Below are positions 30,036 through 61,820 of a stretch of DNA of 64,000 nucleotides, piece after piece. The notes below the pieces were generated by a model. That model was not told the origin of the DNA and ran no database searches. It was given only the letters and a program-made list of their open reading frames with translations. The stretch comes from Planctomycetota bacterium (GTDB lineage Bacteria > Planctomycetota > MHYJ01 > WSZJ01), in contig JBBTCT010000015.1 in NCBI GenBank assembly GCA_038060895.1, positions 121,616 to 185,615 on the forward strand, read 5' to 3'. Within the stretch, counting starts at the first letter, position 1. Each line of letters begins with the position of its first letter. Position numbers and translations under genes: made by a program.

Positions 30036-31451
30036 TTGAATGCCGAGTCCGCTTACCTCTTCAGGCACGTCCTGCTCCGCGATGCCGCCTACCAGTTGCA
30101 GCTCCCCGGCGACCGGGCGCGGCTGCACGGGATTGCGCTCGCTCTGATCGAGGACTTCTGCGGCGGCAGGCCGCCGGAGCAGGCGCCCCTCGGATCACCG
30201 TCGGCCGCAGCCTTCGAGGGACACCCTGCCGACGCGTTCGCCGGAGAACTCGCGGGGCACGCGAGGGCCGCGGAAACCGCGCTGGCCGCGGGTGCGTTCA
30301 GCCGCATCCGCCGGCTGTATCTGCGTCGCGCTGCAGAATACGCGGAGCGGGCCTTTCGCCTCGAGGCCGCTTCTGCCGCCTGGCAGGAACTGGCGGCGCT
30401 TCTCGACCCGCCTGCCGAGGCCCTGGCGCTGGGGAAAGCGGGAGAACTGGCACGCCACGCCGGGCGTGCGGTCGAAGGCGCCCAGATGTGGCAACGGGCC
30501 CTCGAGATTCACCGTCGCCTCGGGAATCGGGCCGGGGAAGGGATCGCGCTGGCCCACCTGGCCAATCTGAGCGTCGACCTTGGACGGATCGAAGAGGCCG
30601 AAGGGCGCTACACGGAAGCGCTGGCACTTCATCGAGAGACGGGCGAGGTCCGCTATGAACATGTCACGATGGGAAACCTCGCGATTCTCTATCACGACTC
30701 CGGCCGGCTCGAAAGCGCCGAACGGACGCTGGAAGAGGCGCTGGCCCGCTGCCGCGCTGCCGGCCATCGCGATCTCGAGGCCGTGACGCTCGGCAACCTC
30801 GGCAACCTCTACAAGGAGACCGGACGCACCGGGGAGGCGGAAACCGCTCTTCTCCAGGCCCTCGCGCTTCATCGCGAAGCCGGCAACGAGCGCTATGTCG
30901 GAATCCTCCTTGGGAATCTCGCCAACTTGCGCAAAGACACGGGCAGGACGGCTGAAGCGGAGCGAGGTTACGCGGAGGCGCTTGCGGTCCACCGGCGGAC
31001 GGGAAACCGGCGGTCCGAGGGAATCGTCCTGGGGAACCTCGCCGGCCTTTTCCCCACGGACGCTCGCCCCGCGGAAGCGGAGCGCGGGTACGAGCGCGCG
31101 TTGGCCATCCATCGCGAAGTCGGCAACCGGCGGGCGGAGGGCGTCGAGCTTGGGGGGCTCGCCGCGGTCTTTCAGGCCACGGGCCGGCTCTCACCGGCGA
31201 TCCGCGCGTTCGACGAGGCCCTTGCCATCCACCGCGAAGTCGGCAATCGGCGCTTTGAGGCCGCGCACTCCTGCGACCGCGCCCTCGCGCTTCTCGATGC
31301 CGGCGATCCCGCGGCCGCCGGCGCCTGGCGGTCGGGGGCGGCGCTTCTGCGCGACCTCGGAGATTCGAACGAAGCGGATCAGAAATCCGCCGAAATGCGC
31401 GCGGCGTGCAACCGTCGGGGCGTGCAGGCGTTCGAAGGGACGTGGGCGTGA
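30036..31451 (+). CDS. TPR protein of the FRHALLRDAAY family (copy 2)
   Basis: [33 protein letters not shown] plus 40-aa repeats; start placed by alignment with paralogs. Confidence 0.88.
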   Translation: MNAESAYLFRHVLLRDAAYQLQLPGDRARLHGIALALIEDFCGGRPPEQAPLGSPSAAAFEGHPADAFAGELAGHARAAETALAAGAFSRIRRLYLRRAAEYAERAFRLEAASAAWQELAALLDPPAEALALGKAGELARHAGRAVEGAQMWQRALEIHRRLGNRAGEGIALAHLANLSVDLGRIEEAEGRYTEALALHRETGEVRYEHVTMGNLAILYHDSGRLESAERTLEEALARCRAAGHRDLEAVTLGNLGNLYKETGRTGEAETALLQALALHREAGNERYVGILLGNLANLRKDTGRTAEAERGYAEALAVHRRTGNRRSEGIVLGNLAGLFPTDARPAEAERGYERALAIHREVGNRRAEGVELGGLAAVFQATGRLSPAIRAFDEALAIHREVGNRRFEAAHSCDRALALLDAGDPAAAGAWRSGAALLRDLGDSNEADQKSAEMRAACNRRGVQAFEGTWA

Positions 31452-31543
31452 ACGCGGAGAACGCTTACCTCTTTCGTCATGCGCTGCTGCGGGATGCGGC
31501 TTACCAGCTGCATCTCCCTGGTCGAGACGACCCGAGGTTTTGA
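31448..31543 (+). pseudogene. 5'-only remnant of the FRHALLRDAAY TPR family (31 codons)
   Basis: GTG-NAENAYLFRHALLRDAAYQLHLPG then RDDPRF-stop; GTG overlaps the copy 2 stop (GTGA); not in the ORF track. Confidence 0.8.
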
Positions 31544-31646
31544 GGCGTTCGAGCGAACGAAGAAAGGCAAGTTCGCGACGCGCTTCTGCGCGACGCGGCG
31601 CGATTTTGTGGTTCAGCCGAGCTCCGGGATTTCGCAGAATACCCGC

Positions 31647-32741
31647 ATGCCAGGCGCGATTCCGCTGAACGAGGAGAACCTGGACCTGGGGTTCGAGCCG
31701 CCCTTCTGTCTCGTCTGCGGAGAACCCGCACCCCTTGTCAAACGTGAACACGTCAATATCCGGGATTGCGCGGAGCCGCCTCCTTCCCCCGCCGAGGCGC
31801 GCTCCCGGCTGTTTCGGCGCACGATTCGCATCCAGGCCCCGCTCTGCCGGCGTCATCGGAGAAACGCGATTCTTCGAAGGGCAGTCTACGGCGTCGGCAT
31901 CGGTCTTTTCACCCTGATCCTGGCTTCATATTTGTTCGTGACGATCAAACCGCGACTCCCGTTCCTGATCGTCCCCGTCTGCGTCGCCGCATGGATGGGC
32001 GTCGCCGCCGGGCGATCCAGGTCCGGAGGCGTCGAACCCGATCTGCTCGTCGAGCGGAAAGATGGCGGTCGCGATCTCGTCTGGCTGAATCCGCCGCCGG
32101 GGCTGGGCGCCCGCCTCCGGCCCCTGGATTATCCGGTTCCGCCGCAGCGGACATTCGATGAGATCGGGACCCCGGCTACCCCCTGGCTGCTCACGATCCC
32201 TCTCAGAGGCGAACAACCGTACTTCGGCAACGACCCGCCTCTCTGCCTGATCTGCGGCGCGCCGGCGACAGGCTTCCGAAAGGTCGAAGTGGCCCTCGCC
32301 GATGGACCGCCGGACGAGGACGGCCAGCGCATCCACCACACCCCAGGTCCCCGGTCGCTTCAGCCCCGGACGACTCCTCCGGTACTCGTGACGGTGCAGG
32401 CGCCCCTCTGCGCCGAGGAACTGAAGAAGGAGAGGCGGTTTTCCCTCAGCGGAGGCTTCGGCTGCCTGATGATCCTGCTCCTCATCGTCTCGTTTTCCGC
32501 CATATCCGTTGTCTGGCCGGAGACGATGTTCGCCAACGCCGTGGATAAGGGGTACGTCACGTGGCTTTTCCTCGGGCTTGTGCTCGTCTGGATCGCCAAC
32601 GCCAGGCATCCCAGGGACCTCACCGCCAGGGTCCTCGATGAAGGAAGCGAGCGCTGTCTCGCCTGGAGAAACCCACCCCGCGAATTGGACCGCGAGATCC
32701 ACCGCCGCCGTTGCCGCCGCGCTGCGACGGCCCGGGACTGA
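31647..32741 (+). CDS. Membrane protein with two internal repeats, each a CxxC...C zinc-like motif plus two TM helices
   Basis: PPFCLVCGEPA...QAPLC...TM-TM...LVWLNPP and PPLCLICGAPA...QAPLC...TM-TM...LAWRNPP. Confidence 0.7.
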   Translation: MPGAIPLNEENLDLGFEPPFCLVCGEPAPLVKREHVNIRDCAEPPPSPAEARSRLFRRTIRIQAPLCRRHRRNAILRRAVYGVGIGLFTLILASYLFVTIKPRLPFLIVPVCVAAWMGVAAGRSRSGGVEPDLLVERKDGGRDLVWLNPPPGLGARLRPLDYPVPPQRTFDEIGTPATPWLLTIPLRGEQPYFGNDPPLCLICGAPATGFRKVEVALADGPPDEDGQRIHHTPGPRSLQPRTTPPVLVTVQAPLCAEELKKERRFSLSGGFGCLMILLLIVSFSAISVVWPETMFANAVDKGYVTWLFLGLVLVWIANARHPRDLTARVLDEGSERCLAWRNPPRELDREIHRRRCRRAATARD

Positions 32742-32750
32742 CCTCCGCGA

Positions 32751-34352
32751 GTGAACGCAGCCTTCGACTCGCCGGACCTGAGGGAGCGTCAGCGAGCCGA
32801 AGGGCGTCGCTCGCCCGGGCCGGATTCGGCGGAAGCCGCCTACGTCTTTCGACACGCGCTCCTCCGCGACGCCGCGTATCAACTGCAGCTTCCCGGCGAC
32901 CGCGCGCGGCTGCACGCGCTGGCGTTTGCGCTGATCGAGGATCTCTGCGGCGGCCGTCCGCCGGAGCCGCCGCCGCTGGACGCGCCCGACCCGCCGCCGT
33001 TCGCGCCGCACGCAACCGATCCGTTCGCGCGGGAGCTGGCGCAGCACGCGCGGGAAGCGATCCGGTCGCCGGCGGTCCCCGCGTCGGCGCTTCACCTCTA
33101 CCTCCAGCGCGCCGCGGTGGTCGCCGAACGCACGATTCAGCCGGGAGCAGAGGAGTGCTGGCTGGAACTGGCGGACATCCTCGAGGGGACGCTTCAAGGC
33201 GCGGCGTTCCTGCACGCGGGCCAGGTCGCCCGCGCGAGAGGCCGCCCCGGCTCCGCCGAGATTCATTTTTCGAAGGGGCTCGCGGTGAGCCGCGCGGTGG
33301 GCGACCGCCGCCAGGAGGCGCTGGTCCTGGGGAGCCTGGGGATCGTGCACCAGGATACGGGGCGCATCGAGGAGGCCGAACGGACGTACGGGGAAGCGCT
33401 CTCGATCCATCGTGAGCTCGACGACCGCCGCGCGCAGGGCCTCCCGTTGGCAAACCTGGGGAACCTCTACGGGGAGACCGGCCGGCTCGAGCAGGCCGAG
33501 CGGACGCACGAGCAGGCACTGGCGATCCATCGGGAATTCGGCAACCGCCGGCTGGCGGGCATTTCGCTCGGGAACCTGGCGAACTGTTGCCTCGCGACCG
33601 GACGCCTCGAGCAGGCCGAGCGGTTGTACGAGCAGGCGCTGGAGATCGATCGCGCCGTCGGCAATCGCAGCTACGAAGGCCTGGAGCTGGGAAACCTCGC
33701 GCTTCTCTTCAACATGACCGGGCGCGTCGAGCAGGCCGAGCGGACGTACGAAGAGGCGCTCGCGATCCATCGCGAAGTCGGCAACCGCCGCTGGGAAGGC
33801 ACCGCGCTCGGGAGCCTGGCCGTCGTTTTCAAGGAGACCGGGCGAGTCGAAGCGGCCGAGCGGACCTACGAGCGGGCGCTCGCGATCCATCGCGAAGTGG
33901 GCAATCGCCGCGGCGAGGGGGTCGCGCTGGGACAGCTGGCCAACATCTACCAGGAGTCCGGGCGCGTCGAGGAGGCCGAGACGGCCTACGAACGCGCGCT
34001 GGCGATCCATCGCGAAGTCGGCAACCCGCGCTTCGAGGGCATCGAGCTGGCCAACCTCGCGAGTCTCTATTACGAGAGCGGGCGCATCGAGCAGGCCGGG
34101 AGCTTCTTCCTGCGCGCTCTCGAGATCATGCGCGCCACCGGGGACCTGCGGTCGGAAGGACTCACCCAGGGTTCCTTCGCCGTGTTCCTCGCGAGAACGG
34201 GCCGCGCCGCCGAAGCGAGGGCGCGCTGGGCCGAGGGCGTGGAGACGCTGAATCGAAGGGGGAACGCGAAGGACCTGCGCCGCATGACCGAGGACATGCG
34301 CGCCGCGTGCGCGAAGGCGGGGACGGCGCCATTAGATGAGGGAGGGGGATAA
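32751..34352 (+). CDS. TPR protein of the FRHALLRDAAY family (copy 3), with an in-frame palindromic insertion near the start
   Basis: MNA-[23 extra aa][29 protein letters not shown]; 120-nt periodic repeats. Confidence 0.88.
   Translation: MNAAFDSPDLRERQRAEGRRSPGPDSAEAAYVFRHALLRDAAYQLQLPGDRARLHALAFALIEDLCGGRPPEPPPLDAPDPPPFAPHATDPFARELAQHAREAIRSPAVPASALHLYLQRAAVVAERTIQPGAEECWLELADILEGTLQGAAFLHAGQVARARGRPGSAEIHFSKGLAVSRAVGDRRQEALVLGSLGIVHQDTGRIEEAERTYGEALSIHRELDDRRAQGLPLANLGNLYGETGRLEQAERTHEQALAIHREFGNRRLAGISLGNLANCCLATGRLEQAERLYEQALEIDRAVGNRSYEGLELGNLALLFNMTGRVEQAERTYEEALAIHREVGNRRWEGTALGSLAVVFKETGRVEAAERTYERALAIHREVGNRRGEGVALGQLANIYQESGRVEEAETAYERALAIHREVGNPRFEGIELANLASLYYESGRIEQAGSFFLRALEIMRATGDLRSEGLTQGSFAVFLARTGRAAEARARWAEGVETLNRRGNAKDLRRMTEDMRAACAKAGTAPLDEGGG
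32760..32828. repeat. 69-nt palindromic insertion (REP-like family B) inside the coding sequence
   Basis: CCTTCGACTCGC (32761-32772) pairs with GCGAGCCGAAGG (32792-32803); absent from all paralogs. Confidence 0.65.
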
Positions 34353-34453: not shown

Positions 34454-34487
34454 CTTGCCTTCCCCCGCTTCGTACCATGCACCGGCC

Positions 34488-35900
34488 TTGCACGCCGAAA
34501 TCGTTTACCTCTTCCGCCACGTCCTCCTCCGCGACGCCGCCTACCAGCTTCAGCTCCCCGGCGACCGCGCGCGGCTGCATGCGCTCGCGTTGGCGCTGAT
34601 CGAAGACCTGTACGGCGGCAGGCCGCCTGTGCCGCCTCCGCAGGACCCCGGGGAACCCCTGGGATTCCAGGAGCACCGGACCGATCCGTTTGCCGAAGAG
34701 CTGGCGGGTCATGCCGCCCACGCGGGGATCGAAGCGGCGCCCGCCGTCGCGAATCTGTACCTGCGCCGGGCCGCGCAGGACGCCGGTCGAAGGTGGCGGC
34801 TTGAGACGTCGGGCAAGTTGTGGCGGCAACTCGCGGAACGATCGACGGGGGTCGAACGCGGCGCCGCCCTCCTCCATGCCGCAAACATGGCGCTCGACGC
34901 GGGGCGGTCGCTGGAAGCCCTGCCGCTGGTCGAGCAGGCGCTGGCGCTTTTCCGCAGCGAAGGCCACCGCCATTTCGAAGGCGTCGCGTGGGGAACGCTG
35001 GCGAGCCTTAACCGGGAACTGGGCCGGATCCAGCAGGCGGAAGCGGCCGATGAAGCGGCGATGTCGATTTTTCGCGAGACGGGGGACCGCCGTGGCGAGG
35101 GCACGGCCCTGGGAAACATGGCGAACCTGCTTCGGCAGTCCGGACGCGTTCCGCAGGCCGAGGGCGCCTACAGGCGGGCGCTGGCGCTTCATCGCGCCGT
35201 TCGCAACCGGCGATCGGAGTCGATCGTGCTGGGAAGCCTCGGGAATCTCCTGAAAGCGACCGGCCGGCCCCGCGAGGCCCGGCGCCTCTTCAGGCAGGCG
35301 CTCGCGATCCAGCGCGCCCTCGGCGACCGCCTGCTGGAAGGCACCGGCGTGGCCAATCTGGCCCGAATGGACCAGGCCTCCGGACAGCTTCGCCGCGCCG
35401 AGCGCGGCTACGCGCAGGCCTTGGCGATCCACAGGGAAGTCGGCGACCGGCGCTTCGAGGGTGTCGCCGTGGGCAACCTCGCCACGCTTCACGCGCAGAC
35501 CGGACGGCCCGGGCTGGCAGAGAAGGGGTTCGAGCAGGCGCTGGCGATCCACCGGGAAGTCGGCAACCGGCGGTCCGAGGGCATCGCGCTCATGAACCTG
35601 TCCCGCCTGCAGGGCGAAACCGGGCGGGCCGCCTCCGCCGAAGCCGGATTTGCGCAGGCCCTGACCCTCTTTCGCGATTCGGGCTCACGGACCGCGGAAG
35701 CCGTGTGCTTTTGCGACTTCGGCGTATTCCTGCTCGACAGGGGCCGCGTCGAAGAGGCGCGCGCGAAGTGGCGCCAGGGGGCTGGAATCCTGCGCGACCT
35801 CGGGGACACGGCGGAGCTCCAGCAGAAAACCGTGGCGATGACGGCCGCGTGCTCCAGGGCGGGAATCCCGCCGCTCGCCGAGGCGTTGGACGAACATTGA
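34488..35900 (+). CDS. TPR protein of the FRHALLRDAAY family (copy 4)
   Basis: [33 protein letters not shown] plus repeats; TACCAT shortly upstream. Confidence 0.88.
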   Translation: MHAEIVYLFRHVLLRDAAYQLQLPGDRARLHALALALIEDLYGGRPPVPPPQDPGEPLGFQEHRTDPFAEELAGHAAHAGIEAAPAVANLYLRRAAQDAGRRWRLETSGKLWRQLAERSTGVERGAALLHAANMALDAGRSLEALPLVEQALALFRSEGHRHFEGVAWGTLASLNRELGRIQQAEAADEAAMSIFRETGDRRGEGTALGNMANLLRQSGRVPQAEGAYRRALALHRAVRNRRSESIVLGSLGNLLKATGRPREARRLFRQALAIQRALGDRLLEGTGVANLARMDQASGQLRRAERGYAQALAIHREVGDRRFEGVAVGNLATLHAQTGRPGLAEKGFEQALAIHREVGNRRSEGIALMNLSRLQGETGRAASAEAGFAQALTLFRDSGSRTAEAVCFCDFGVFLLDRGRVEEARAKWRQGAGILRDLGDTAELQQKTVAMTAACSRAGIPPLAEALDEH

Positions 35901-36840: not shown

Positions 36841-38340
36841 GTGCGCTCCGCCGAAGCTGCTTATGTGTTCCGCCACGCGCTCATGCGTGACGCGGCGTAC
36901 CAGCTCCAGCTCCCCGGCGACCGCGCGCGACTGCACGGACTGGCGTTCGCGCTCATCGAAGACCTGTGCGGCGGCCGCGCCCCAGATCCCGCGCCGTTCG
37001 AAGAGTCCGGCGGGGCGCCGGATGCTCTCCACGCGTCCGACGCGCTGGCCGAGGACCTGGCGGCCCACGCGCGGCATTCGGGAGCGCCGGCGTCCCTCGA
37101 GCTGCTGTACCTCCGCCGCGCCGCGGGCCGCGCCGAACGGCAGTACGATTTGGACGCGGCCGAATCCCTCTGGAGCCGCGTCGCCGCGCTGCTTCCGGAA
37201 GATCAGGCCGCGGCGGCCCTCCAGTACGCCGGGCGCTGCGCGGTCTTTCGCTCCCACTACGGCGCCGCGGAGGAGATCTTCCAGCGGCTGGTCGAGCTCG
37301 GGAAGAGTGCCGGGAATCCCCGCGCCGTCGCCGCCGCGCGGAACAACCTGTCCATCGTGTTCCGGGAGACCGGGCGGCGGGCGGAAGCGATCGAGGCATC
37401 GCGCGATGCGATCGCGAAGTTCCGCGAAGGCGGCTTCCCCGCCGAGGAGGCCCGCACGCTGTCCTCCCTCTCCCACCTCGAGCTGGAAGCGGGTCGGCCT
37501 CTGGAGGCGGAGGCGCTTCTCCGCCGGGCGCTCGAGCTGATCGCGGCTCACGGGAAGCCCCTCGACGAGGGGCTGGCGTGCATCAGCCTCGGCAGCGCCC
37601 TCAACGCCCTGGCGCGCTTCCCCGAAGCCGAGGCGTCGATGAGGCGCGCCGTCGACATCCTGCGCGCCGCCGGCGCGCGTCGCTACCTCGCCATCGCCCT
37701 GAGCAACCTCGGCCAGCTCCTGCAGGACTCCGAGCGCATCGAGGAGGCGCTGGCGCTGCTCGAAGAGGCGCTGGCGATCCACCGTGAAGTAGGCAACAAG
37801 CGGTCCGAAGGCATCACGCTGGGGACCCTCGCCCTCGTCCACCAGAATGCCGGACGACATGACCGCGCCGAGGCGATCTACCGCGACGCGCTCTCCGTCA
37901 ACGAGGAGACCGGCAACCGCCGCCAGTTCGCCGTCGTCCTCGGCAACATCGGGTCCCTCTGGCAGGAGCGCGGCAAGTTCGCGGAAGCCGAGGCCCTCTA
38001 CCGCCGCGCCCTCGCCCTCCACCGGGAGGTCGGATACCGCCGCTTCGAAGGCATCATCCTCGGCTCGCTCGCCATCGTGTCCCTGGTCACCGGCCGCCTC
38101 GACGACGCCCTGCGCCTCTTCCGCGACGCCGTCGCCGTCCATCGCGCCGTCCGCAATCGCATGCACGAGGGCGTCCACCTCTGCGGCCTCGCCGCGGCGC
38201 TTCGGTGTCAGGGCGATGCGGCGGAAGCGCGGGCCGCGTGGGATGAGGGGGCGGCGATCCTGGCCGAAGTCGATCTCCGGAGGCTGGAGCACGCGCGGGC
38301 CCTGGCCCGGCAGGTGTGCGGCGACGCATTCGAGTCCTGA
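36841..38340 (+). CDS. TPR protein of the FRHALLRDAAY family (copy 5)
   Basis: [32 protein letters not shown]; TAGAAT 6 nt before GTG. Confidence 0.9.
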
Positions 38341-40979: not shown

Positions 40980-40980
40980 G

Positions 40981-43300: not shown

Positions 43301-43365
43301 TCCTGAGAATCGAAGTCTGCCACCTGCTAAAATCGAGATTCGGTGACGGAAGGAGTCGCGGTCGC

Positions 43366-48000: not shown

Positions 48001-48079
48001 CTACTCCTCGAACGCCGCCACCCCCGCTTCCCCGCACGCCCGGCGCATCTCGGCGAGAACCTGGTCCAGCTCGCGGACG
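48001..48079 (-). pseudogene. Minimal 3' remnant of a TPR family gene (direct-repeat copy III)
   Basis: VRELDQVLAEMRRACGEAGVAAFEE-TAG; nucleotide match to copies I, II and IV. Confidence 0.8.
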
Positions 48080-48124
48080 GGCGGAGACGAAGCGTCCAGC
48101 GCCGGATCCGAGTAGGATGCCCCC

Positions 48125-49513: not shown

Positions 49514-49551
49514 ACCTTTTTTCGCCAGCCGATGCCTCCGGGCCGCTTCCG

Positions 49552-50150: not shown

Positions 50151-50185
50151 AACCGGCCGCAGCACCGGGATTCCCCTTGTAAAGG

Positions 50186-51964
50186 CTACTTCTTGTCCAG
50201 GGCCTTCAACTCGGCTTGCGCCGCGTCAAATTCCACCAGATCTGTCCGGCCCGTCTCGACGCACTTCTGGAAGAGCTGTTTCGCCTCGTCCTTCATGCCC
50301 TCGATGAGTTTCAGGGTGCCAACATAAAAGAAGGCCTCACATTTCTGGTTCTGGATCTCGCCTTCATCGCCGGACTCGGCCGCTTTCAGAAACTCGGCTT
50401 CCGGCAGTTTTCCCAGGAGGTATGAGGAGACCTTGAGATACCAGTCGTCGGACTCACCGGCCGTGCGCCCATCGAGGTAACCGGACAGTTCCTTGCCGGC
50501 ACGCTCGCGGTCTCCGAGACGGACGCAGATCAGGAACAGGAGAGTTCGGACGTAGTCCTGATCTTTTGCGTCGACTTCGCAGGCGCGGCGCAATGAGGTT
50601 TGCGCTTCGGCAAATTTGCCGAGCCTGTATTGATACCACCCGACCTCGCGGTAACGCCAACCCTGGGGATCGAGCTCGATGGTCCTGGCGAAGTCCGCGA
50701 GAGCGCCGTCGGCGTTGCCGCTCATGGCATGCGCCTTCGCGCGAAACATCCGGGAATTGACATCTCCAGGTGCGATTTCGATCGCCCTGGTGAAGTCGGC
50801 GTTGGCGCCGGGGAAGTCGAGGAGCAGGCACTTCGCCCGGCCGCGGTTTTGCCAGAGATTCGCCACCAGGGGCTGCAACTCGAGGGCCTTGGAGTAGGCT
50901 TCGACGGCCTTCTGGTAGGCTCGTGCACCGAAGCCGGCATTTCCGATGTAACACCAGGCGTTGTAGGAACCGGGGTCGAGTTGGGTCGCTTTGCCGCAGT
51001 CCTCCATGGTTCCTTCGTAGTCCCCCTTCTGAAACTTCGTGACGCCGCGCCCGAGCCAATGCTCCGCGTCCTTCGGATTCAGGTCGATGGCCTGGGTGAA
51101 GTCGGCGATTGCGCCGTCCAGGTCCTTTGCGCCGCGTCTCGCCACGCCCCGGTTGTGCCACGTGTAGGCGTGCCTGGAATTGACCTTGATGACCTCTGTG
51201 TAGTCGGCGATTGCCCCTTCGTAATCTCGCTTGTCGAGGTGGACAGCGGCGCGTTGATAGTACAGGTCGATGTCCTCCTTTTCCTTCCAGTCCCCATCCT
51301 TCTTCCCCTCGTTCGACTTCTTCACCGCCGCCCGATTGCACTCGATCGCCCGTGTGAAATCCGCGATCGCCCCGTCGTAATCCCGGAGCCCGTATCTGGC
51401 CTTCCCTCGCGCCTTCCAGCACCCGGCCCCTTCGGGCTTGGCGGCGACGGCCTTGTTGAAGTCGGCCATGGCGCCGTCGTTGTCGTTGAGCCTGAGTTTG
51501 AACTCGGCCCGCTGGATCAGGGGGACGACATTGCTTGGGTCCAATTCGACCGCCTGCGTGTGATCCGACAAGGCGCCGTCCAGATCCCCCTTGGCGACCT
51601 TGCACTCCGCGCGGCGCGCGAGGTAGGCCATTGCCAGGAAGGTCCCGGTTGTTGCTTTCCGGCCCCCGGCGTCCACGAGGTACCTCTCGATCGAGCGGGT
51701 GTAGTCGGCAATGGCCTTGTCGTGGTCCTTCTTCGCGAACCAGACCTCTCCGCGCCCTGCCCAGTGGCTTGCCGAATCCGGATCGAGCTTGATGCACTCT
51801 TCATATTCGGCCAGGGCACCGTCCAGGTCGCCATCCTTCAGCTTCTTCTCAGCGGACCAGCCCAATTTGGTGGCCTTGTCACGCTTGCTTTCTTCCGCAC
51901 GACTCTCCCGGGGAAGAAGCAGAAGACCGGCCGTCAGTGCTGCAAGACACAAGATGGAGCGCAT
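50186..51964 (-). CDS. Exported canonical 34-aa TPR protein with NlpI-like C-terminus
   Basis: AGGAG RBS then MRSILCLAALTAG signal peptide; A.ADFT.AIEL.P repeats; C-terminal CEAFFYVG...A..LF..CV; unrelated to the FRHALL family. Confidence 0.85.
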   Translation of the reverse strand: MRSILCLAALTAGLLLLPRESRAEESKRDKATKLGWSAEKKLKDGDLDGALAEYEECIKLDPDSASHWAGRGEVWFAKKDHDKAIADYTRSIERYLVDAGGRKATTGTFLAMAYLARRAECKVAKGDLDGALSDHTQAVELDPSNVVPLIQRAEFKLRLNDNDGAMADFNKAVAAKPEGAGCWKARGKARYGLRDYDGAIADFTRAIECNRAAVKKSNEGKKDGDWKEKEDIDLYYQRAAVHLDKRDYEGAIADYTEVIKVNSRHAYTWHNRGVARRGAKDLDGAIADFTQAIDLNPKDAEHWLGRGVTKFQKGDYEGTMEDCGKATQLDPGSYNAWCYIGNAGFGARAYQKAVEAYSKALELQPLVANLWQNRGRAKCLLLDFPGANADFTRAIEIAPGDVNSRMFRAKAHAMSGNADGALADFARTIELDPQGWRYREVGWYQYRLGKFAEAQTSLRRACEVDAKDQDYVRTLLFLICVRLGDRERAGKELSGYLDGRTAGESDDWYLKVSSYLLGKLPEAEFLKAAESGDEGEIQNQKCEAFFYVGTLKLIEGMKDEAKQLFQKCVETGRTDLVEFDAAQAELKALDKK

Positions 51965-52967: not shown

Positions 52968-53096
52968 GAATGTGACTCCTTGAGATGTTCGTCTCGGAAT
53001 TGGAGTTAAGCCTACTAACACAACCAACCCCGCGACACGAATAACAGGCGCGCGCGGGGCAACCTTCTGTTTTTCCCGTTAACCTCGGGGTGGATC

Positions 53097-53328
53097 TCAG
53101 CCGCCGGGCTGCGTCACCTCCGCCTTCGCACACGTTTCCCGCCACGCCCGGCGAATGAGGTCGAACTTGTGCGAGTCGCGGACTCCTTCGAGGCGCTCGA
53201 CCGCTTCCTGCCAGGCGGCGCGGGAGGGCGGCCTCGTGGAGGCGCGCGCGGACGCCGGGGAGCTGGAGGTGGTAGGCGGCATCGCGGAGGACGGCGTGGC
53301 GGAAGAGATAAGCGGACTCGGCGTTCAC
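53097..53328 (-). pseudogene. TPR family gene with all repeats deleted (5' motif joined to 3' tail)
   Basis: MNAESAYLFRHAVLRDAAYHLQLPGVRARLHEAA then, frameshifted, RAAWQEAVERL...WRETCAKAEV; TACGAT 6 nt before GTG retained. Confidence 0.8.
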
Positions 53329-53358
53329 TCGAACATCGTACGAGTGGTTCCTGAGATT

Positions 53359-53470
53359 ACACAGAGGACACGGAGATTACGGAGGGCCACAGAGGAACGG
53401 CAAAAAAATCTTTTTGTCCTTCCTCCGTGGCTCTGATACCACCCCCAAGTTCTCCGTGACCTCCGTGTCA
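53359..53470. repeat. CACAGAG/CACGGAG-based palindrome (REP-like family D)
   Basis: acacagaggacacggagattacggagggccacagagg ... cctccgtggctctg ... ctccgtgacctccgtgt. Confidence 0.7.
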
Positions 53471-53575
53471 AAACAGAGACCTGCACCGCCCAATCCAGGA
53501 CCACTCTCACGTCCTCTCTCGACGACTTCCCGTCGTTCCGTCTCGCGCCGCGGTGGCGAGTGGTAGAATTAGTGC

Positions 53576-53992: not shown

Positions 53993-54442
53993 ATGAACAT
54001 GACATCCCTCACGCACGATCCCGTCGCCCCGACGCCGGACGAGTCCGCCCTCGCCAAGGATTCGAGCCGCCGTCTCGCGCCGTTTTTGGCCAAGGAATTG
54101 AAGATCCGGATTCCGGATTCCAAAGAGGCCATCGTATTGCCAGCGGCCGCGGTCCGGCTGCTGGTCGAACTGCTTTCTGAAATGGCCGAGGGGAACGCCG
54201 TCACGCTCATCCCGATCCATGCCGAACTGACCACGCAGCAGGCGGCGGACCTGCTCGGCGTGTCTCGCCCCTTCCTCATTGAGCAGTTGGAGTCCGGCAA
54301 GCTCCCTTATCGCAAGGTGGGGACGCACAGGCGCGTGCTCTTCCAGGACCTCATGAAATTCAAGTCCGACATCGACGCCCGCCGCCGCGCGACGCTCGAT
54401 AAACTGGCCGAGGATGCGCAAAAGCAGGGCATGGGGTACTGA
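53993..54442 (+). CDS. Excisionase/MerR-like HTH DNA-binding protein (antitoxin)
   Basis: ELTTQQAADLLGVSRPFL...LE.G.LP..KVGTHRRV. Confidence 0.88.
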   Translation: MNMTSLTHDPVAPTPDESALAKDSSRRLAPFLAKELKIRIPDSKEAIVLPAAAVRLLVELLSEMAEGNAVTLIPIHAELTTQQAADLLGVSRPFLIEQLESGKLPYRKVGTHRRVLFQDLMKFKSDIDARRRATLDKLAEDAQKQGMGY

Positions 54443-55014
54443 TGTTCGCGACGTTCACGGCGGTCTACGACGCCTGCGTCCTGTACCCCGCGCCGCTTCG
54501 CGACCTGCTCATGCGGCTTGCGCTTACCGACATGTTTCGGGCGCGGTGGTCGAGCGACATTCACGAAGAATGGATGCGGAGCGTTCTCCGCGACCGGCCG
54601 GACTTGAAGCGTGCGCAACTTGAGCGGACGCGCGACCTCATGAACGAAAACGTGCGGGACTGCGTTGTCACTGGATACGAGTCCCTCATCCCCGGACTTA
54701 CGCTTCCCGATCCGGATGACCGCCACGTGCTGGCCGCAGCAATCCGCGCAGGCGCTTCCGTCATCGTCACGTACAACACCGCGGATTTTCCCGAGGGCAC
54801 GCTGAAGTCGTTCGGCGTGGAGGCGCAGCACCCGGACGTCTTCATCACTCATCTGTTCGACCTTTCGCCTGCCGCGGTTGTTTCTGCAGCGCGTGAGCAG
54901 CGGGCGGCGTTACGGAATCCTCCAGTCTCCGTCGACAAATTTCTCGAAGCGCTCGCGAAACAGCAGCTTCCCGAAACGGTCAATCGGCTTCGTCAGTTCG
55001 CGGCATTGATCTGA
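54442..55014 (+). CDS. PIN domain protein (toxin)
   Basis: VYDACVLYP..LRD.L, WS..I.EEW, LPDPDDRHVLAAAI, IVT.N..DFP; TGATG coupling to the HTH gene. Confidence 0.88.
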   Translation: MFATFTAVYDACVLYPAPLRDLLMRLALTDMFRARWSSDIHEEWMRSVLRDRPDLKRAQLERTRDLMNENVRDCVVTGYESLIPGLTLPDPDDRHVLAAAIRAGASVIVTYNTADFPEGTLKSFGVEAQHPDVFITHLFDLSPAAVVSAAREQRAALRNPPVSVDKFLEALAKQQLPETVNRLRQFAALI

Positions 55015-55085: not shown

Positions 55086-56606
55086 TCAATCAATCGCCTC
55101 CACTCCCGCCCTCGCGCACTCGGCCTCCATCAGCGCGAGCGAGTCGTTCAGCACGTCCTTCTCATCGAGCTTGCGGAGAACCGCGGCTCCCTTCGTCCAT
55201 GAAGCGCGAGCCTCCTCGATCCGCCCCTCGAACACCAGGAGGGCGGCCGCATAGCAGCGGCAGGAGGCTTCGCCGGAAGGATTCGAGGACTGCGTGCACG
55301 CCTGCAGCGCTTCATCGAGGTGCGTCCGCGCCTCGCGGTGACGGTCCAGCTTGTGGCTGAGGACGGCGAGGTTGAGAAGCGAGACGCCTTCGGACCGCCG
55401 GTCGCGGCCCGAGCGGTGAAGGTCCAGCGAACGCTGGTACGTCCCGAGCGCCTCCTCCAGCCGGCCCTGGTCCGCGAGGACACCGGCCAGGCTGCCCAGC
55501 GCAAACGCCTCCCCCCGCACGTCGCCCATGGTCCTCAGGATTTCCAGCGCGGTCTCGATGGCGTTCACCGCCTCGGGAAATCGCCCTCGTGCTCCCAGGA
55601 TCGAGCCCATGTTGGCGAGGACGTTGGCTTCGCTGAAGCGGTCCCCGCATTCGCGGGCGATGGGAAGCGCCTGGACTGCGAAAGTCTCGGCCTCGTCGGG
55701 CCGGCCTCGGTAGATGTGGTAGTTCAGGAGCCCCGCCAGGGCCCGGCCCTCTCCCGCCCGGTCGCCCGCGGCCCGGAAGACTGCCAGGGCGCGGCGCTTC
55801 ACGCGTTCCGCTTCGTCGTACCGGGCCGTGGTCAGGTACAGCGTGCCCAGTGCGCCGAGCACGACTCCCTCCAGCCGGCGATTCTTCGTCTTCCGGTGAA
55901 ACGCCAGCGCTTTCAGGAAGGCCGCCTCGGCCTTCTCGATCCGCCCGGTCTCGGAGTACAGCGCCGCGAGATTGCCGAGGTCGTGGCCCTCCATCGCGGA
56001 GTTTCCCGTCTCCCTGTGGATCTTCATCGCGCGCCGGTACCCCCGCTCGGCCTGGTCGAGCCTCCCGGTTCTCTTCCAGATCAGCGCCTGGCAGGCCAGC
56101 ACAAATCCCCGGAGGCGCGCGTTTCCCCGCGAATGGGAAAACGCTTCCTCGAGCAATCGCTCCGCTTCCGCGCGATTCCCGCCGAGCTCCAGCAGGCGCG
56201 CCGCGCGCGTCAGCAGCCCTGCTCGACCGGGACCGGACATCTGGCCGGCCAGCGCCCGCCAGTGCTCCGTCGCTTCCGCGTGGCGAAACCCGCGCTCCGC
56301 CGCGGCGGCGGCCCGGAAGAGGTACAGGCGATGCGCGGCGGTCCACTCCGATTGACGTGCTCCGCGGGGCTCTCCGGCGCGAAGCGCGTGCTGCGCGAGT
56401 TCCCCGGCGAAGACATCGGACGGATGGGAAAGGGTGGGAACACCGTTGGATGAGAAATCTACGTCCGGAGGCCGCCCGCCGGCTTGCGTTTCGATCGCCT
56501 CGAACGCCATTCCATGCAGCCGCGCGCGGTCTCCGGGGAGCTGGAGTTGATAAGCCGCGTCGCGCAGCAGGGCGTGGCGGAAGAGGTAAGCCGTCTCGGC
56601 GTTCAC
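55086..56606 (-). CDS. TPR protein of the FRHALLRDAAY family (copy 6)
   Basis: [31 protein letters not shown]; TAGGAT 6 nt before GTG. Confidence 0.9.
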   Translation of the reverse strand: MNAETAYLFRHALLRDAAYQLQLPGDRARLHGMAFEAIETQAGGRPPDVDFSSNGVPTLSHPSDVFAGELAQHALRAGEPRGARQSEWTAAHRLYLFRAAAAAERGFRHAEATEHWRALAGQMSGPGRAGLLTRAARLLELGGNRAEAERLLEEAFSHSRGNARLRGFVLACQALIWKRTGRLDQAERGYRRAMKIHRETGNSAMEGHDLGNLAALYSETGRIEKAEAAFLKALAFHRKTKNRRLEGVVLGALGTLYLTTARYDEAERVKRRALAVFRAAGDRAGEGRALAGLLNYHIYRGRPDEAETFAVQALPIARECGDRFSEANVLANMGSILGARGRFPEAVNAIETALEILRTMGDVRGEAFALGSLAGVLADQGRLEEALGTYQRSLDLHRSGRDRRSEGVSLLNLAVLSHKLDRHREARTHLDEALQACTQSSNPSGEASCRCYAAALLVFEGRIEEARASWTKGAAVLRKLDEKDVLNDSLALMEAECARAGVEAID

Positions 56607-56716: not shown

Positions 56717-58237
56717 TCAGACTTGACCTTCGAACGGCGCCACCCCCGCCTTCGCGCAGGCATCCTTCATCGAGGCGGTCTTCCGGGACAGTTCGCCGGC
56801 GTCTTCGACCTGGCTAAGGAGGTCCGCGCCCCGGCGCCACAGACCGGAGGCGGCGCCGGGATGGCCGAGGGCGAGTTCGAGAAGCGCGACGTCGCAGAGG
56901 GCGGCGCCTTCGAGGCGGACGGCGCGCAGGTCGCGAAGGATACGGAGGGCCTGGTCGAATTGTCGGCGGGCTTCCTCCAGGCGGCCCTCCCGCGTGAGGA
57001 CGGCGGCGAGATTGGCGATTGCCAGCGCTTCGGAGCCCCGGTCGCGCACCTCGCGATGGATTTCAAGTGCCGCCTCGAAGAGCGGCCGCGCTTCCGCGTC
57101 GCGCCCCTGGTCGCTTCGGAGGAGTGCGAGATTCGCCAGGGCGATGCCCTCGAATCTCCGCTGGCCGAATTCGCGGTGAAGGACGAGCGCTTCCTCGAAC
57201 AGGCGATCCGCCTGCTCGAACCGAAGGGTCTGCTGCATGAGGATCGCGAAATGCCCGAGGGCGGGTCCGGCCGCGCGGCGATTGCCGGTTTCGCGGTGGA
57301 GGGCGAGGGTTTCGGCGAACAGCCGCTCGGCGAGATCCGTTTCGCCGGCGTCGCGCAGGAGTCCGGCGAGGTAGCCCATGACGGTTCCTTCGAGGCGGCG
57401 GTCGCCCGCGGACCGGAAGACGGCGAGGGCACGTTCGAAGCACGCGCGGGCTTCGGCGATGCGACCCGTTTCCTTGAGCAGGGTCCCGAAGTTCCCCGTT
57501 ACCTGCGCTTCCAGGTGCGACTCGCCGGTCGAGCGATGCAGATCCAGGGCCTGGGAGTAGGCCTGGTGCGCGAGGTCGGGGCGTCCCGTGCCCTTGTAGA
57601 GGTTGGCGAGGTTTCCGAGCGCGGTCGCCTCCGAGACCGGGTCGCGAGCTTCGCGGAACGTGTCCAGCGCCCTCAAGTACGTCCGCTCCGCGGTCGCGAC
57701 GTCGCCTTCCTGCATTTCCAGGTTCGCGAGGTTGACGAGCACCATGCCGTGCGTCCGCGCCGCCTCGGGGGCCTCCGCTGCCCGAAGGGCCTCGGTCAAC
57801 AATTTCCGCGACTCCGCGCCCTTTCCGGCGTCTCCCGCCGCGACGGCGGCGCGCCGGAGGGCGTCCGCCCGCTCTGCGCCGGAGCTCAGTTCGGCCTGCC
57901 GGCGCCACCACCGCTCCGCGTCCGCGCTTCGATTCTGGCGCGTCGCGATCCATCCCGCGCGACGGACATACCGCGCTTCCGTCGCCTCCGGCGCGGCCGC
58001 GAGCCGCGCGTGCGCCGCGAGCTCTTCCGCGAACGCATCCGTCGGATGCGGCTTAAGGACAAGGCGCCCGGGTTTCTCGACGGAAGCGTCGTCGGCCGGG
58101 GCGCCGCCGCAGAGATCCTCGATCGACGCCATTGCGAGGCCGTGCAGCCGCGCGCGGTCGCCGGGGAGCTGGAGCTGGTAGGCGGCGTCGCGGAGGAGGG
58201 CGTGGCGGAAGAGATACGCGGTCTGGGCGGAAGGCAC
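56717..58237 (-). CDS. TPR protein of the FRHALLRDAAY family (copy 7)
   Basis: [30 protein letters not shown]; TAGAAT 6 nt before GTG. Confidence 0.9.
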   Translation of the reverse strand: MPSAQTAYLFRHALLRDAAYQLQLPGDRARLHGLAMASIEDLCGGAPADDASVEKPGRLVLKPHPTDAFAEELAAHARLAAAPEATEARYVRRAGWIATRQNRSADAERWWRRQAELSSGAERADALRRAAVAAGDAGKGAESRKLLTEALRAAEAPEAARTHGMVLVNLANLEMQEGDVATAERTYLRALDTFREARDPVSEATALGNLANLYKGTGRPDLAHQAYSQALDLHRSTGESHLEAQVTGNFGTLLKETGRIAEARACFERALAVFRSAGDRRLEGTVMGYLAGLLRDAGETDLAERLFAETLALHRETGNRRAAGPALGHFAILMQQTLRFEQADRLFEEALVLHREFGQRRFEGIALANLALLRSDQGRDAEARPLFEAALEIHREVRDRGSEALAIANLAAVLTREGRLEEARRQFDQALRILRDLRAVRLEGAALCDVALLELALGHPGAASGLWRRGADLLSQVEDAGELSRKTASMKDACAKAGVAPFEGQV

Positions 58238-58879: not shown

Positions 58880-60562
58880 TCATGGGGGCGATTCTGCGGG
58901 GGGGAACGGGCCTGGGTGCTCGGGCAGCGGCGCGACTCCAGCCTTGGCGCACGCTTCGCGCATCAAGACCCGCCTGACCTCCAGGTCGCCCGCGGCGGAG
59001 AGGCGCTTCAGGAGCGCCGTTCCCTGCCGCCAGAGCGCCTCGGCTTCGGGGTGTCGCGAGAGGCGGAGGAGGCACAGGGCGAGGTCGCACGAGCAGATGC
59101 CCTCGAACCGCCGATCGCCGACTTCCCGGAGGATGGCCATCGCCTGCTGGTACACGGGCTCGGCCTGTTCGGCGCGGCGGGTGTCCACGTAGATGCCGGC
59201 CAGGTTCGCGAGGACGATGCCCTCGAATCTCCGGTTGCCGGCTTCCCGGTGGATGGCCAGCGCCTGCTCCCAGGTGCGTTCGGCCTGTTCGACGCGACCC
59301 GTCTCCCGGTAGACGAGACCCAGGTTGCCCAGCGCGATGCCCTCGCTTCGGCGATTGCGGACTTCCCGGTGGATGGCCAGCGCCTGCCCGTACGTCCGCT
59401 CGGCCCGTTCGGAGCGGCCGGTCGCGTGGTAGATGAGGGCCAGGTTCTCCAGGGCGATGCCTTCGCTCCGGCAGTCGCCGACCTCCCGGTGGATGGCCAG
59501 CGCCTGCTCGCAGATGCGTTCGGCCTGTTCGAGTCGGCCGGTCTCCTGGCAGAGGAGGGCCAGGTTGGCGAGAGTGACCCCTTCGAACCTGCGGTTGCAG
59601 ACCTCCCGGTGTATGGCCAGCGCCTTTTCGAATGCGGTCTCGGCGAGTTCTGCGCGGCCGGTCTCCCTGTAGAGGAGAGCGAGGTTCCCCAGAGCCCCGC
59701 CTTCGAGACGGCGGTTGCCGACTTCCCGGTGAATGGCCAGGGCCTGCCGGTACATTCGCTCGGCCTGCCCGGTGCGGCCGGTCTCCCGGTAGACGTTTGC
59801 CAGATTTCCCAGAGTGGTGCCTTCGAGCCTGCGGTTGCCGGCCTTCCGGTGGATGGCCAGCGCCTCCTTGTACGCGCGCTCGGCCTGTTCGGCGCGGCCG
59901 GACTCATGGAAGACGATGGCCAGGTTCCCCAGGGCGGCGCCCTCGCCCCGGAGGTTGCCGCCCTCACGGTGGATGGCCAGCGCCCGCGCGTACGCGCGCT
60001 CGGCCCGTTCGTCGCGGCCGGTCTCGTGGTAGACGATCGCCAGGTTCCCCAGCGTGGCGCCCATATTTCGGAGGTCGGCGACTTCCGAGAACAAGTCGAG
60101 CGCTCTCTCATAGTGCGCCTCAGCTTCCTGCGGCCGACCTCCTTTCCACGCCGCGACGCCGGCGCTGCGCAGCGCCGCCGCGCGGAGGGCTCCCTGGGAC
60201 AGACCGGCCAGTTCGAGCCAGCAACCCTTGGCTTCCGGCCGGAACTGGCGATCCGCGAGTTCGGCGGCGCGACGGAGATAGTGGGGAAGTGCATCCGTCG
60301 GGACTCCCGACCCCTCCGCGCCGGACGCCTGGCGGGCATGTCCGGCGAGCTCGAGCGCGAAGGCGTCCGTCGGGTGGGGCGCGAAGGCGGGGGGCTCGGC
60401 AGCGTCCGACGGCGGCGGCTCCGGCGGCCGGCCGCCGCAGTGCTCCTCGATCAGCGCGAACGCCAGCCCGTGCAGCCGAGCGCGGTCGCCGGGGAGCTGG
60501 AGCTGATAGGCCGCATCGCGCAGCAGGGCGTGTCGAAACAGGTAAACCGATTCGGCATTCAC
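58880..60562 (-). CDS. TPR protein of the FRHALLRDAAY family (copy 8), with highly homogeneous 120-nt repeats
   Basis: GTG-NAESVYLFRHALLRDAAY overlapping the upstream stop (GTGA); ATGGCCAG recurs every 120 nt from about 59253 to 59973. Confidence 0.9.
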   Translation of the reverse strand: MNAESVYLFRHALLRDAAYQLQLPGDRARLHGLAFALIEEHCGGRPPEPPPSDAAEPPAFAPHPTDAFALELAGHARQASGAEGSGVPTDALPHYLRRAAELADRQFRPEAKGCWLELAGLSQGALRAAALRSAGVAAWKGGRPQEAEAHYERALDLFSEVADLRNMGATLGNLAIVYHETGRDERAERAYARALAIHREGGNLRGEGAALGNLAIVFHESGRAEQAERAYKEALAIHRKAGNRRLEGTTLGNLANVYRETGRTGQAERMYRQALAIHREVGNRRLEGGALGNLALLYRETGRAELAETAFEKALAIHREVCNRRFEGVTLANLALLCQETGRLEQAERICEQALAIHREVGDCRSEGIALENLALIYHATGRSERAERTYGQALAIHREVRNRRSEGIALGNLGLVYRETGRVEQAERTWEQALAIHREAGNRRFEGIVLANLAGIYVDTRRAEQAEPVYQQAMAILREVGDRRFEGICSCDLALCLLRLSRHPEAEALWRQGTALLKRLSAAGDLEVRRVLMREACAKAGVAPLPEHPGPFPPAESPP

Positions 60563-61707
60563 TTCAGCCCTCTCAACGTCGCCGGCAGATCCAGGATCGA
60601 CACCGCCTCGGTTTTCTTTCCCATCGGCCACGACTTCGGGCCCGGGTAGACGACGAAGAGCCGTTCGAGCTTCAGGTCTTGGTGCGCGACGTGCATGGAC
60701 TTCGTCATCGAAGGCCCGTCGGTGAGTTTAATCTCGAATCCGAACCGCTTCCCGCCGCGAACGATCAGCAGGTCGAGCTCGGCGCCGGCGTGCGTGCGAT
60801 AGAACCAGCCTTCGCGCTCGCCGAGGAGGGAGAGGACCTGTTCGACGACGAAACCTTCCCATGAGGCGCCGTGGCGCGGGTGTGAAGCGACTTCCGTGGC
60901 GGTCCGGAGGAGAAGAAGCGCGTGGAGGAGGCCGGAATCGCGCACATAGATCTTTGGTGATTTCACGAGGCGCTTGCCGACGTTCTCGAACCAGGGTTGC
61001 AGCTGGCGGACGACGTAGGCGCCGGTAAGGAGGTCGAGGTAGCGCCGGGCGGAGCTTTCACTGGCGCCCAGCGAGCGGGCGAACTCGGCGGCGTTCCAGA
61101 CCTGGCCGTGGAAGTGGGCGATCATGGTCCAGAAGCGGCGGAGGGTGGCCGCGGGGATGGAAAACCCGAGCTGGGGGATGTCGCGCTCGAGAAAGGACCG
61201 GACGAAGTCCTCGCGCCACTCGAAACTGGCGGACTCCGACCGGGCAAGGAACGAGCGCGGAAAGCCGCCGCGGGTCCAGAGCGTGCGGAAGGCGGCGGGT
61301 CGCGTCTCCACGATGTCGAAGCCGGACATGTCCACGTAGGCGACGCGGCCTGCCAGCGTTTCGGACACTCCGCGCACCAGGTCGGGGGAAGCGCTTCCGA
61401 GAATGAGGAATCGTGCCGGCGTTCCCCTGCGGTCCGCGAGGACGCGGAGGTGCTGGAACAGGTCGGGGCGGCGCTGGATTTCGTCGATCACGACGAGGCC
61501 GCGGAGGGGTTCGAGGGCCAGGTCGGGAGGATCGAGGCGGCGGAGGTCGCGCTCGGACTCGAGGTCGAGGTACTGGCCGGCGGAGACTCCGGCCAACTCA
61601 TGGGCAAGGGTGGTTTTCCCGCACTGCCGGGGGCCGAGAAGAGCGACGACGGGGGAGCGGGCCAGCGCGGCGCGAACGGCGTTCCTGAGTCGGGGGCGTC
61701 GGATCAC
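60559..61707 (-). CDS. AAA_14 plus DUF4143 ATP-binding protein
   Basis: GPRQCGKTTL, IDEIQR.P.LF, LGSAS, ETLAGR, RGGFP, KRLVKSPKIY.RDSGL, E.DL...FEIK. Confidence 0.9.
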   Translation of the reverse strand: MIRRPRLRNAVRAALARSPVVALLGPRQCGKTTLAHELAGVSAGQYLDLESERDLRRLDPPDLALEPLRGLVVIDEIQRRPDLFQHLRVLADRRGTPARFLILGSASPDLVRGVSETLAGRVAYVDMSGFDIVETRPAAFRTLWTRGGFPRSFLARSESASFEWREDFVRSFLERDIPQLGFSIPAATLRRFWTMIAHFHGQVWNAAEFARSLGASESSARRYLDLLTGAYVVRQLQPWFENVGKRLVKSPKIYVRDSGLLHALLLLRTATEVASHPRHGASWEGFVVEQVLSLLGEREGWFYRTHAGAELDLLIVRGGKRFGFEIKLTDGPSMTKSMHVAHQDLKLERLFVVYPGPKSWPMGKKTEAVSILDLPATLRGLK

Positions 61708-61761
61708 GGGAGAAAAGTGTACATTGAAAATCAGCTATAAGGTAGAGGAATTTCAAGGATA

Positions 61762-61820
61762 AGCGGCGTCGAGCTGGAGCTCGTACTCGGCGTCGCGGAG
61801 GACGGCGTGGCGGAAGGGAA
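61762..61820 (-). pseudogene. Tiny 5'-motif remnant of the TPR family
   Basis: Reverse strand reads FPFRHAVLRDAEYELQLDA; abuts the direct repeat at 61822. Confidence 0.65.

Follow-up and report, generated by a model that had tools for sequence, protein, structure and literature searches.

We analysed a 64,000-nucleotide (nt) stretch of DNA, called the window here (C15:121616-185615; G+C about 67%), from a 5.4-Mb, 47-contig metagenome-assembled genome (MAG) of an uncultured member of the Planctomycetota. The window carries intact members of a family of TPR proteins, which we call sensor genes, and three stubs, A, B and C, that retain little of such a gene. A six-frame pattern search found the conserved 5′ motif of the family ten times in the window, eight times at the N terminus of open reading frames (ORFs) of 476-583 amino acids and twice as stubs A and B; stub C is below the length for the pattern search and was recovered with a hidden Markov model (HMM) of the motif. 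When this HMM was run on the genome translated in all six frames, stubs A, B and C scored 54, 64 and 25 bits (E = 6e-14, 4e-17 and 6e-5), far above chance. The first-pass annotation had described three remnants that keep mainly the 5′ motif, and all three were recovered at the same positions. None has the N-terminal domain, as judged by its HMM, or the repeats; that is, they are truncated relative to the intact paralogs.

Our preferred reading, held with moderate confidence, is that the remnants are decaying front-end stubs of deleted sensor genes, in a system in which a STAND NTPase is split within the wing of its winged-helix domain, the motif would be a docking plug and deletion ends cluster. 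Its observed basis comprises the gene family and its split, the clustered break points, the decay of the stubs and selection on the peptide over codons 0-18; binding in trans and the cause of the clustering are inferred.

Three stubs and the array around them

Stub A (31448-31543, forward strand) is a 31-codon mini-ORF that covers motif columns 0-22; it consists of GTG plus 31 codons and reads VNAENAYLFRHALLRDAAYQLHLPG and then RDDPRF before its stop codon. This GTG and the TGA (31449-31451) that closes the intact gene at 29985-31451 overlap, and the mini-ORF is therefore coupled to the upstream copy, as had been proposed. A tally of such stop-start overlaps over the family is uninformative, since every GTGAAC start contains a TGA. 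Family similarity stops after GGT; this boundary, nt 68/69 of the motif, separates LPG from DRARLH. A second, shorter piece of the motif lies 30 nt 3′ of stub A (31574-31600, forward; ALLRDAA, columns ~9-15), and 26 nt of it are 96% identical to the motif of a copy at C24:138496-138521. The unique ORF region beside the stub (31544-32750) gave no locus-level match in seven congeneric genomes, only three short matches (28-40 nt, E ~9e-4), two of which fall in the stretch that holds the second motif fragment. The ORF 3′ of stub A (31650-32741) matched no Pfam family and contains two internal repeats, each with an FEPPFCLVCG-like sequence and a hydrophobic stretch; a fragment of its paralog lies at C2:188163-188229, directly before an orphan piece of a sensor N-terminal domain (C2:187995-188093).

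Stub B (53097-53328, reverse strand) begins with a TACGAT hexamer 6 nt 5′ of a GTG, continues through the motif to RARLH (~nt 88) and then passes into the C-terminal tail of the family, with the N-terminal domain and all TPRs deleted. The tail, AAWQEAVERLEGVRD...CAKAEV... to a stop codon, is read in the +1 frame, which makes stub B an out-of-frame fusion. The earlier description of a motif fused to the 3′ tail without repeats thus stands; what it called a −10 box comes down to a TANNNT hexamer without a −35 partner, and a promoter and terminator scan of 53000-53500 found nothing.

Stub C (61762-61820, reverse strand) holds motif columns 6-20 only (FRHAVLRDAEYELQL), is truncated at both ends and has two changes at strictly conserved residues. 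Past CAGCTC, GACGCCGC is repeated, which bears out the proposal that this motif is cut at a direct repeat. Its junction was identical in contigs from two independent DNA runs (61640-62000 and 61703-62000) and one RNA-library run (61666-61858); none of the listed run contigs was shown to bridge the junction of stub B. Three inter-paralog read skips were dismissed as repeat cross-matches, their shorter side being only 20-21 letters. Runs of a CACRGAGG/CCTCYGTG octamer lie upstream of stub B (four copies, 53340-53420) and stub C (three copies, 61850-61890), and such CCTCYGTG-type repeats are not family-wide, since in a set of 51 intact copies not one carries even two of them in the 200 nt before it. 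An HTH_17 and PIN_3 gene pair (53993-55014) lies ~0.7 kb from stub B, and an AAA_14 and DUF4143 ATPase gene (60559-61707) ends 55 nt from stub C; these small accessory-type genes inside the sensor array may have arrived with the disruptions.

The intact copies all carry TPR_12/TPR_10 repeats (8/8 in the window; Pfam, TPR_12 E 1e-33 to 1e-69), and no Pfam family matched their first ~130 residues. The copy at 144-1574 (reverse), with a plug, N-terminal domain, TPR_12/TPR_10 array and tail, adjoins the single-copy N-half gene described below, which lies outside the window. Four copies are on the forward strand. In that at 29985-31451 the motif starts at 30042 and a nucleotide-conserved island (nt 57-86) corresponds to 30099-30128; that at 32751-34352 starts with GTG AAC GCA, continues with an in-frame GC-rich repeat-like insert (32757-32835) and then restarts with the full motif; that at 34455-35900 was the copy used for folding (as 34488-35897); and the last lies at 36841-38340. 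The copies at 55086-56606, 56717-58237 and 58880-60631 are on the reverse strand. A TANNNT hexamer ends 4-9 nt 5′ of the start codon in 22 of 51 copies, compared with ~3% expected by chance (for example at 53329-53345 and 34470-34490). This placement and the lack of a −35 hexamer at stub B suggest leaderless transcripts, many of them with GTG first. Just upstream of the sensor array, 17364-21218 (reverse), 22456-26043 (reverse) and 25841-28552 (forward) encode another cyclase-AAA-TPR protein and two Ser/Thr kinases, one of them fused to an FGE-sulfatase domain.

Motif-less 3′ fragments of sensor genes also occur, eight in the genome and four of them in the window, all on the reverse strand: 42591-43502 (one TPR and the tail), 46339-47208 (several TPRs and the tail), 48001-48216 (only the last ~24 residues of the tail) and 49552-50205 (TPRs and the tail). 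Their break points lie elsewhere in the gene, except for that of a fragment at C5:123158 at nt 69. Three of the four fragments in the window share a 300-nt direct repeat that is 95-96% identical (42596-42895, 46335-46634 and 49548-49847, spaced by 3739 and 3213 nt). These near-identical sensor 3′ ends are a segmental duplication of an already truncated copy.

Break points and decay across the family

We took a census by searching the six-frame translation of the whole genome with the motif HMM. The 83 matches comprised 53 intact short copies (motif, N-terminal domain and C-terminal tail in a single frame), 16 long STAND proteins, whose motif is a variant (FRHALLRDAAYSLL..R.RARLH) located around residue 460-1010, mostly ~515-585, and 14 stubs. 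Two of the stubs, J and M, were weak (14-16 bits) and were left out, so that 12 stubs of this genome were analysed. The family was present in all seven congeners searched, with 16-87 matches per genome; four genomes that represent other families within the order gave none, 2 of 19 further genomes of the class gave weak matches, and matches in the public genome collection fell in MAG records of uncultured Planctomycetota or Planctomycetia.

The break point of each stub was defined as the end of similarity in an alignment to the family consensus, intact genes being ~1,280-1,760 nt long. In this genome, similarity ended at nt ~47 (H), ~55 (L), 63-69 (C), 69 (A), 69 (E), 75 (G), ~76 (N), ~86 (F), ~88 (B), ~135-163 (I), 157 (D) and ~360 (K), and 9 of the 12 stubs ended within nt 27-90. 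The 5′ end is joined to the gene's own tail or last repeat in B, D, G and K and may be in H and I, and the deletions of A and C run out to unrelated DNA. Stubs D (reverse) and E (forward) stand back to back, 57 bp apart, at G000:C2:15267-15505 (L006), which looks like the scar of an inversion or inverted duplication.

The same pattern was seen in other genomes, in which 82 loci gave 148 motif hits, 117 with a complete N-terminal domain and 31 without one. These 31 include unsplit proteins and copies cut by locus ends, and we examined 14 of them. Eleven ended at nt 27-82: L040 and L057 at 27, L094 at 43, L027, L029, L049, L068 and L097 at ~50-52, L037 at 58, L047 at 69, and a second L094 stub at 82. 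Two others ended at ~125-135, and L046 had a 1-nt frameshift and no break. A truncated or frameshifted copy of ~230 amino acids (L021:721, apparently the same locus as L053:1221) was counted as ending past nt 90. Taken together, 20 of 26 stubs ended by nt 90, with p ~4e-22 under a uniform model (2e-10 for this genome alone), values that overstate the case because several stubs probably share an origin. The clustering is not due to detection, because any motif-bearing 5′ stub, whatever its length, would be found. From the other side, the 3′ fragment at C5:123158 is reciprocal and starts exactly at DRARLH.

Mapping where motif-bearing loci lose similarity had been suggested as a check on the idea of a recombination hotspot, and the ends proved clustered, not randomly spread along the gene. 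That part of the idea holds and repeats in other genomes. The notion of one site does not, as the ends are spread over nt 27, 43, ~50-52, 55, 58, 63-69, 75, 76, 82, 86 and 88, with no single defined position, unlike a site-specific recombination site such as an attC-like cassette site.

Strictly conserved positions were changed in 19 of 287 cases across 24 stubs (6.6%), compared with 32 of 2584 across 152 intact copies (1.2%; Fisher odds ratio 5.7, p = 1.4e-7), and 10 of the 24 stubs were damaged, including C (two changes) and B (one). As a class, the stubs are decaying under relaxed constraint.

The motif as part of a split winged helix

What the motif is became apparent from the long paralogs, five of five tested having Guanylate_cyc, AAA_16 and TPR domains (AAA_16 E 1e-16 to 1e-22). 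We aligned all 16 and folded the region from NTPase to motif of one unsplit paralog (predicted local distance difference test score, pLDDT, 92). In this model, YLFR is a strand (351-354) paired with the strand at 338-341, ALLRDAAYS is the next helix (357-365) and DRARLH opens the helix that follows. Foldseek returned 199 matches at E <= 0.001, the best PDB matches being the STAND-TPR protein 6mfv (E 1e-10), Apaf-1 (3sfz and 1z6t), CED-4, Avs3 and MalT (8bob). Because of these positions and fold matches, the motif is, in the model, the second wing strand and the following helix of a STAND winged-helix domain. We take the label winged helix from general knowledge of STAND architecture; Pfam gave no family above noise for this region of the unsplit paralog or for the tail of the N-half, and a PDB sequence search reached the cyclase and TPR parts only. 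The histidine of FRH, directly after the second wing strand, is invariant in all 152 short copies and may be equivalent to the nucleotide-contacting histidine of MHD/LHD-type winged helices.

The piece that precedes the motif in the unsplit proteins is encoded by a separate gene. This N-half gene (C15:117791-120265, 825 amino acids), just outside the window, has two cyclase stretches and an AAA_16 domain (E 5e-11), and its product ends in REGVLIPADGPQTAAAKS directly before the stop codon, a sequence that aligns to the residues immediately before the motif in the unsplit paralogs. It is a single-copy gene with one ortholog in each of six of seven congeners (72-86% identity), all with the same end point. 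A 519-amino-acid open frame elsewhere in the genome (G000:C20:50409-51965, L106) matches only the NTPase part of the long paralogs, ends ~58 residues past the NTPase match with a weak motif match, and may be a second truncated core.

A sensor model built from an 80-sequence alignment was an all-helical solenoid with a mean pLDDT of 94, in which residues 1-20, the most conserved of the protein, reached only 59-67; the motif part is therefore not packed into the sensor's own fold. When the last 410 residues of the N-half were predicted together with the first 135 residues of a sensor, the pair scored 0.73, against 0.00 for the best control, a mark that 116 of 157 complexes of known structure attain, as do 2 of 215 mismatched pairs. 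Three runs agreed in at least 89% of contacts, the partner had a pLDDT of 82, and the predicted interface joined sensor residues 2-21 and 26-40 to N-half residues 336-345, 355-377 and 395-402. The prediction supports binding in trans, and the motif is probably a docking plug for the N-half.

We next consider the codons of the motif, as it had been asked whether the motif is a DNA module and not only a protein motif. Over columns 0-18 (AE..AYLFRHALLRDAAYQL) of 51 intact copies, synonymous heterozygosity was 0.50, compared with 0.49 expected from the family's own codon usage, and all six arginine codons are in use at column 7. Synonymous sites are thus free there, and selection acts on the peptide. 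Columns 19-27 behave differently (QLPGDRARL; CAG CTC CCC GGC GAC CGC GCG CGG CTG; nt 57-86): their heterozygosity was 0.30, compared with 0.55 expected, or 0.54 with codon usage conditioned on the next two bases (1,578 other ORFs). This value ranked lowest among the 124 stretches of nine conserved columns that the gene contains, and none of 100,000 random column sets was as low. The same island codons dominate in 101 copies from other genomes, whereas in 11 unsplit paralogs they do not. Averaged over pairs of copies, nucleotide identity is 0.75 over nt 0-56, 0.85 over nt 57-86 and 0.64 over nt 87-125. RNAalifold found no consensus structure in four motif windows of 152 ungapped sequences. A dispersed DNA element was considered and rejected for the island, as outside the family its 21-mers have 0 and 1 occurrences, and the 21 hits that 18-mers give with <=2 mismatches allowed resemble chance matches in GC-rich DNA. 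With synonymous sites saturated over two thirds of its length, the motif is no DNA module there, and the proposal survives only for the island.

Origin of the stubs and what they mark

These observations fit a scheme in which the STAND NTPase of this genus is divided inside the wing of its winged helix, with a probable docking plug made of the second strand and the following helix. One single-copy gene, with two cyclase domains and the NTPase, ends past the first wing strand, and about 50 sensor genes, each with plug, N-terminal helical domain, TPR array and tail, begin with the second. If all plugs have to fit a single shared partner, this would account for the near invariance of ~28 residues in a protein that otherwise diverges. 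Stubs A, B and C would then be non-functional, left when sensor bodies in tandem arrays were deleted, either to unrelated DNA (A and C) or to the gene's own tail (B). The left ends of the deletions cluster in or just after the plug-coding stretch, where local sequence would favour illegitimate joining.

There are three candidate features for such joining. One is that the codons CCC GGC GAC CGC (PGDR) may offer microhomology, as they recur in frame as GDR(R) in TPR units. GGCGACCG occurs 58 times in the 51 gene bodies examined, GGCGACCGC is in frame as the GDR of TPR units in 22 of 23 copies, and 8-mers taken from the first 57 nt reach 27 occurrences at most. In stub G the frame runs on through a QLPGDR/QSEG fusion, as expected from slippage on the GDR codons. 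Another candidate is a (CG)4 palindrome within the stretch. A further candidate is a dispersed GC-rich repeat, against which junctions in other genomes lie. Nine of 10 other-genome stubs viewed closely abut, by eye, a GC-rich element (CCTTCGACTCGC...CTCAGGGC or CCCGCCTTCG...GGCGGG), and an intact family gene starts within ~35-110 nt downstream of eight of the 10; at L027, L037, L049, L068 and L097 the repeat separates the 5′ motif stub from the intact sensor gene that follows. With <=4 mismatches allowed, the core of this element (CCTTCGACTCGCTTCGCTCGCTCAGG) is dispersed through this genome in 44 copies, often directly after stop codons; the insert read in frame in the window copy at 32751-34352 is related to it. 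We rejected a description of the GC-rich spacers as generally palindromic, since strong hairpins were present in some variants only. No integrase or recombinase turned up among the 35 ORFs of the window in a Pfam scan, although no dedicated search was made.

The most serious rival supposes that deletions start anywhere and that selection does the rest. A product with the plug and N-terminal domain, and without a sensor array, would poison the single-copy N-half and be purged, so that only very short stubs survive. We regard such a filter against longer plug-bearing fragments as unlikely, yet worth taking seriously. It fits the ratio of one N-half to 16-87 sensor-type matches per genome, the lack of any 5′ stub longer than ~360 nt in this genome, where every motif copy with a complete N-terminal domain has an in-frame tail, and the plug as the predicted interface. 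It fits less well with five stubs (D, I, K, L029:3604 and L051) in which all 32 residues of the motif and a portion of the following domain are still present, with stubs of 23 residues that still hold interface residues 2-21, and with the ~230-amino-acid copy at L021:721. The first-pass annotation offered an alternative, that the peptides are dominant-negative docking decoys, by which plug-only mini-ORFs would be translated and occupy the socket of the N-half. Docking suits the motif, given the predicted complex, and stub A lends the idea some colour: its start codon overlaps the upstream stop codon, none of the 13 conserved positions it covers has changed, and the predicted interface residues 2-21 are retained. 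An RNA-library contig also covers stub C, although DNA carry-over or read-through may account for it. Action as decoys is nevertheless improbable, as invariant residues are changing in the stubs at the rate given above, stub C lacks the start and first six codons, stub B is fused out of frame, and the neighbouring ORF of stub A lacks a locus-level match in the congeners, so that no conserved mini-gene is shown.

Two further explanations place the cause in the DNA or in the assembly. If the motif DNA were itself functional, as a promoter-proximal or recombination site common to all copies, the breaks would mark that site. The island's low heterozygosity and its dominant codons in other genomes speak for this, as does the TANNNT hexamer before many start codons. 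We consider it quite unlikely, however, as the first 57 nt are saturated at synonymous sites, the island's 21-mers are all but confined to the family, the breaks are spread over nt 27-90, RNAalifold finds no conserved structure and no recombinase was linked to the island. A 47-contig MAG with more than 50 paralogs also invites the suspicion that the stubs are chimeric joins made by the assembler at the repeated motif. This is very improbable: the stubs join non-family DNA and not the motif of another copy, the mean pairwise nucleotide identity of the motif is only 0.75-0.85, the surroundings of stub C are identical in the other DNA and RNA-library runs, and similar stubs occur in several other assemblies.

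Several points weigh against the reading of the stubs as decaying front ends of deleted genes. The independent events number fewer than 26, as L040/L057, L029/L049 and L027/L068 probably share an origin and L026 duplicates L027. Decay is a class-level result, 14 of 24 stubs, including A, being without any change at a strictly conserved position, and stub A taken alone may be a young or even an active peptide. Binding in trans is modelled, from small alignments of our own (7 and 8 rows), and the halves of split genes tend to pass such predictions through their likeness to single-chain structures. The GDR microhomology is directly displayed at one junction only (G), stubs A and E join unrelated DNA with no evident homology, and hairpin Z-scores are mixed (−4.0, −3.4 and −2.6 in three inter-stub spacers; −1.7, −0.3 and +0.8 in three others; −1.0 after stub A). 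The nucleotide conservation of nt 57-86 falls outside this explanation altogether. One tentative, rather doubtful possibility is that the island (CAGCTCCCCGGCGACCGCGCGCGGCTGCAC), kept in ~150 copies across several genomes, is a cis-acting site common to all sensor genes; it might let recombination turn over or exchange sensor cassettes, or serve family-wide co-regulation, and the stubs would then be scars.

Deletion of sensor bodies behind a conserved plug remains the reading we prefer, and it can be set beside known systems. The 16 long paralogs share the architecture of cyclase-AAA_16(STAND)-TPR and STAND-TPR proteins (6mfv and MalT 8bob), and the motif corresponds to their wing strand and helix. 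The short family has the same TPR_12/TPR_10 type of sensor but lacks the NTPase and cyclase, its chain being cut inside the wing, with one N-half for ~50 C-halves. A search of the literature at the level of titles and abstracts found neither the sensor family nor a STAND split inside the wing described. Plant sensor-helper NLR networks (the NRC network, for example) pair complete NLRs with one another. Here, too, many fast-diverging sensors would converge on one or few signalling cores, with the difference that a stretch missing from the core's own domain would be contributed by the sensor. The stubs also resemble the remnants in fast-turnover bacterial multigene families, with truncated, relaxed copies beside intact paralogs and array-collapsing deletions (B, D, G and K); they differ in that the left ends lie in a ~60-nt 5′ stretch containing a nucleotide-conserved island.

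The stubs are thus ordinary gene debris, and their value lies in marking the turnover of a very large genus-specific sensor family. New here are the stub census, the break-point map, the codon-level test and the link to GC-rich repeats. Two testable puzzles follow, namely why deletion ends gather within ~60 nt and what conserves 30 nt, synonymous sites included, in each of the sensor genes. Time and again the whole body of a sensor gene is lost and its plug-coding start left in place, and the plug is the only part held constant. This pattern fits one cyclase-NTPase core served by dozens of exchangeable TPR sensors. Such a layout would be akin to the sensor-helper networks of immune receptors, but would have come about by the division of one domain.

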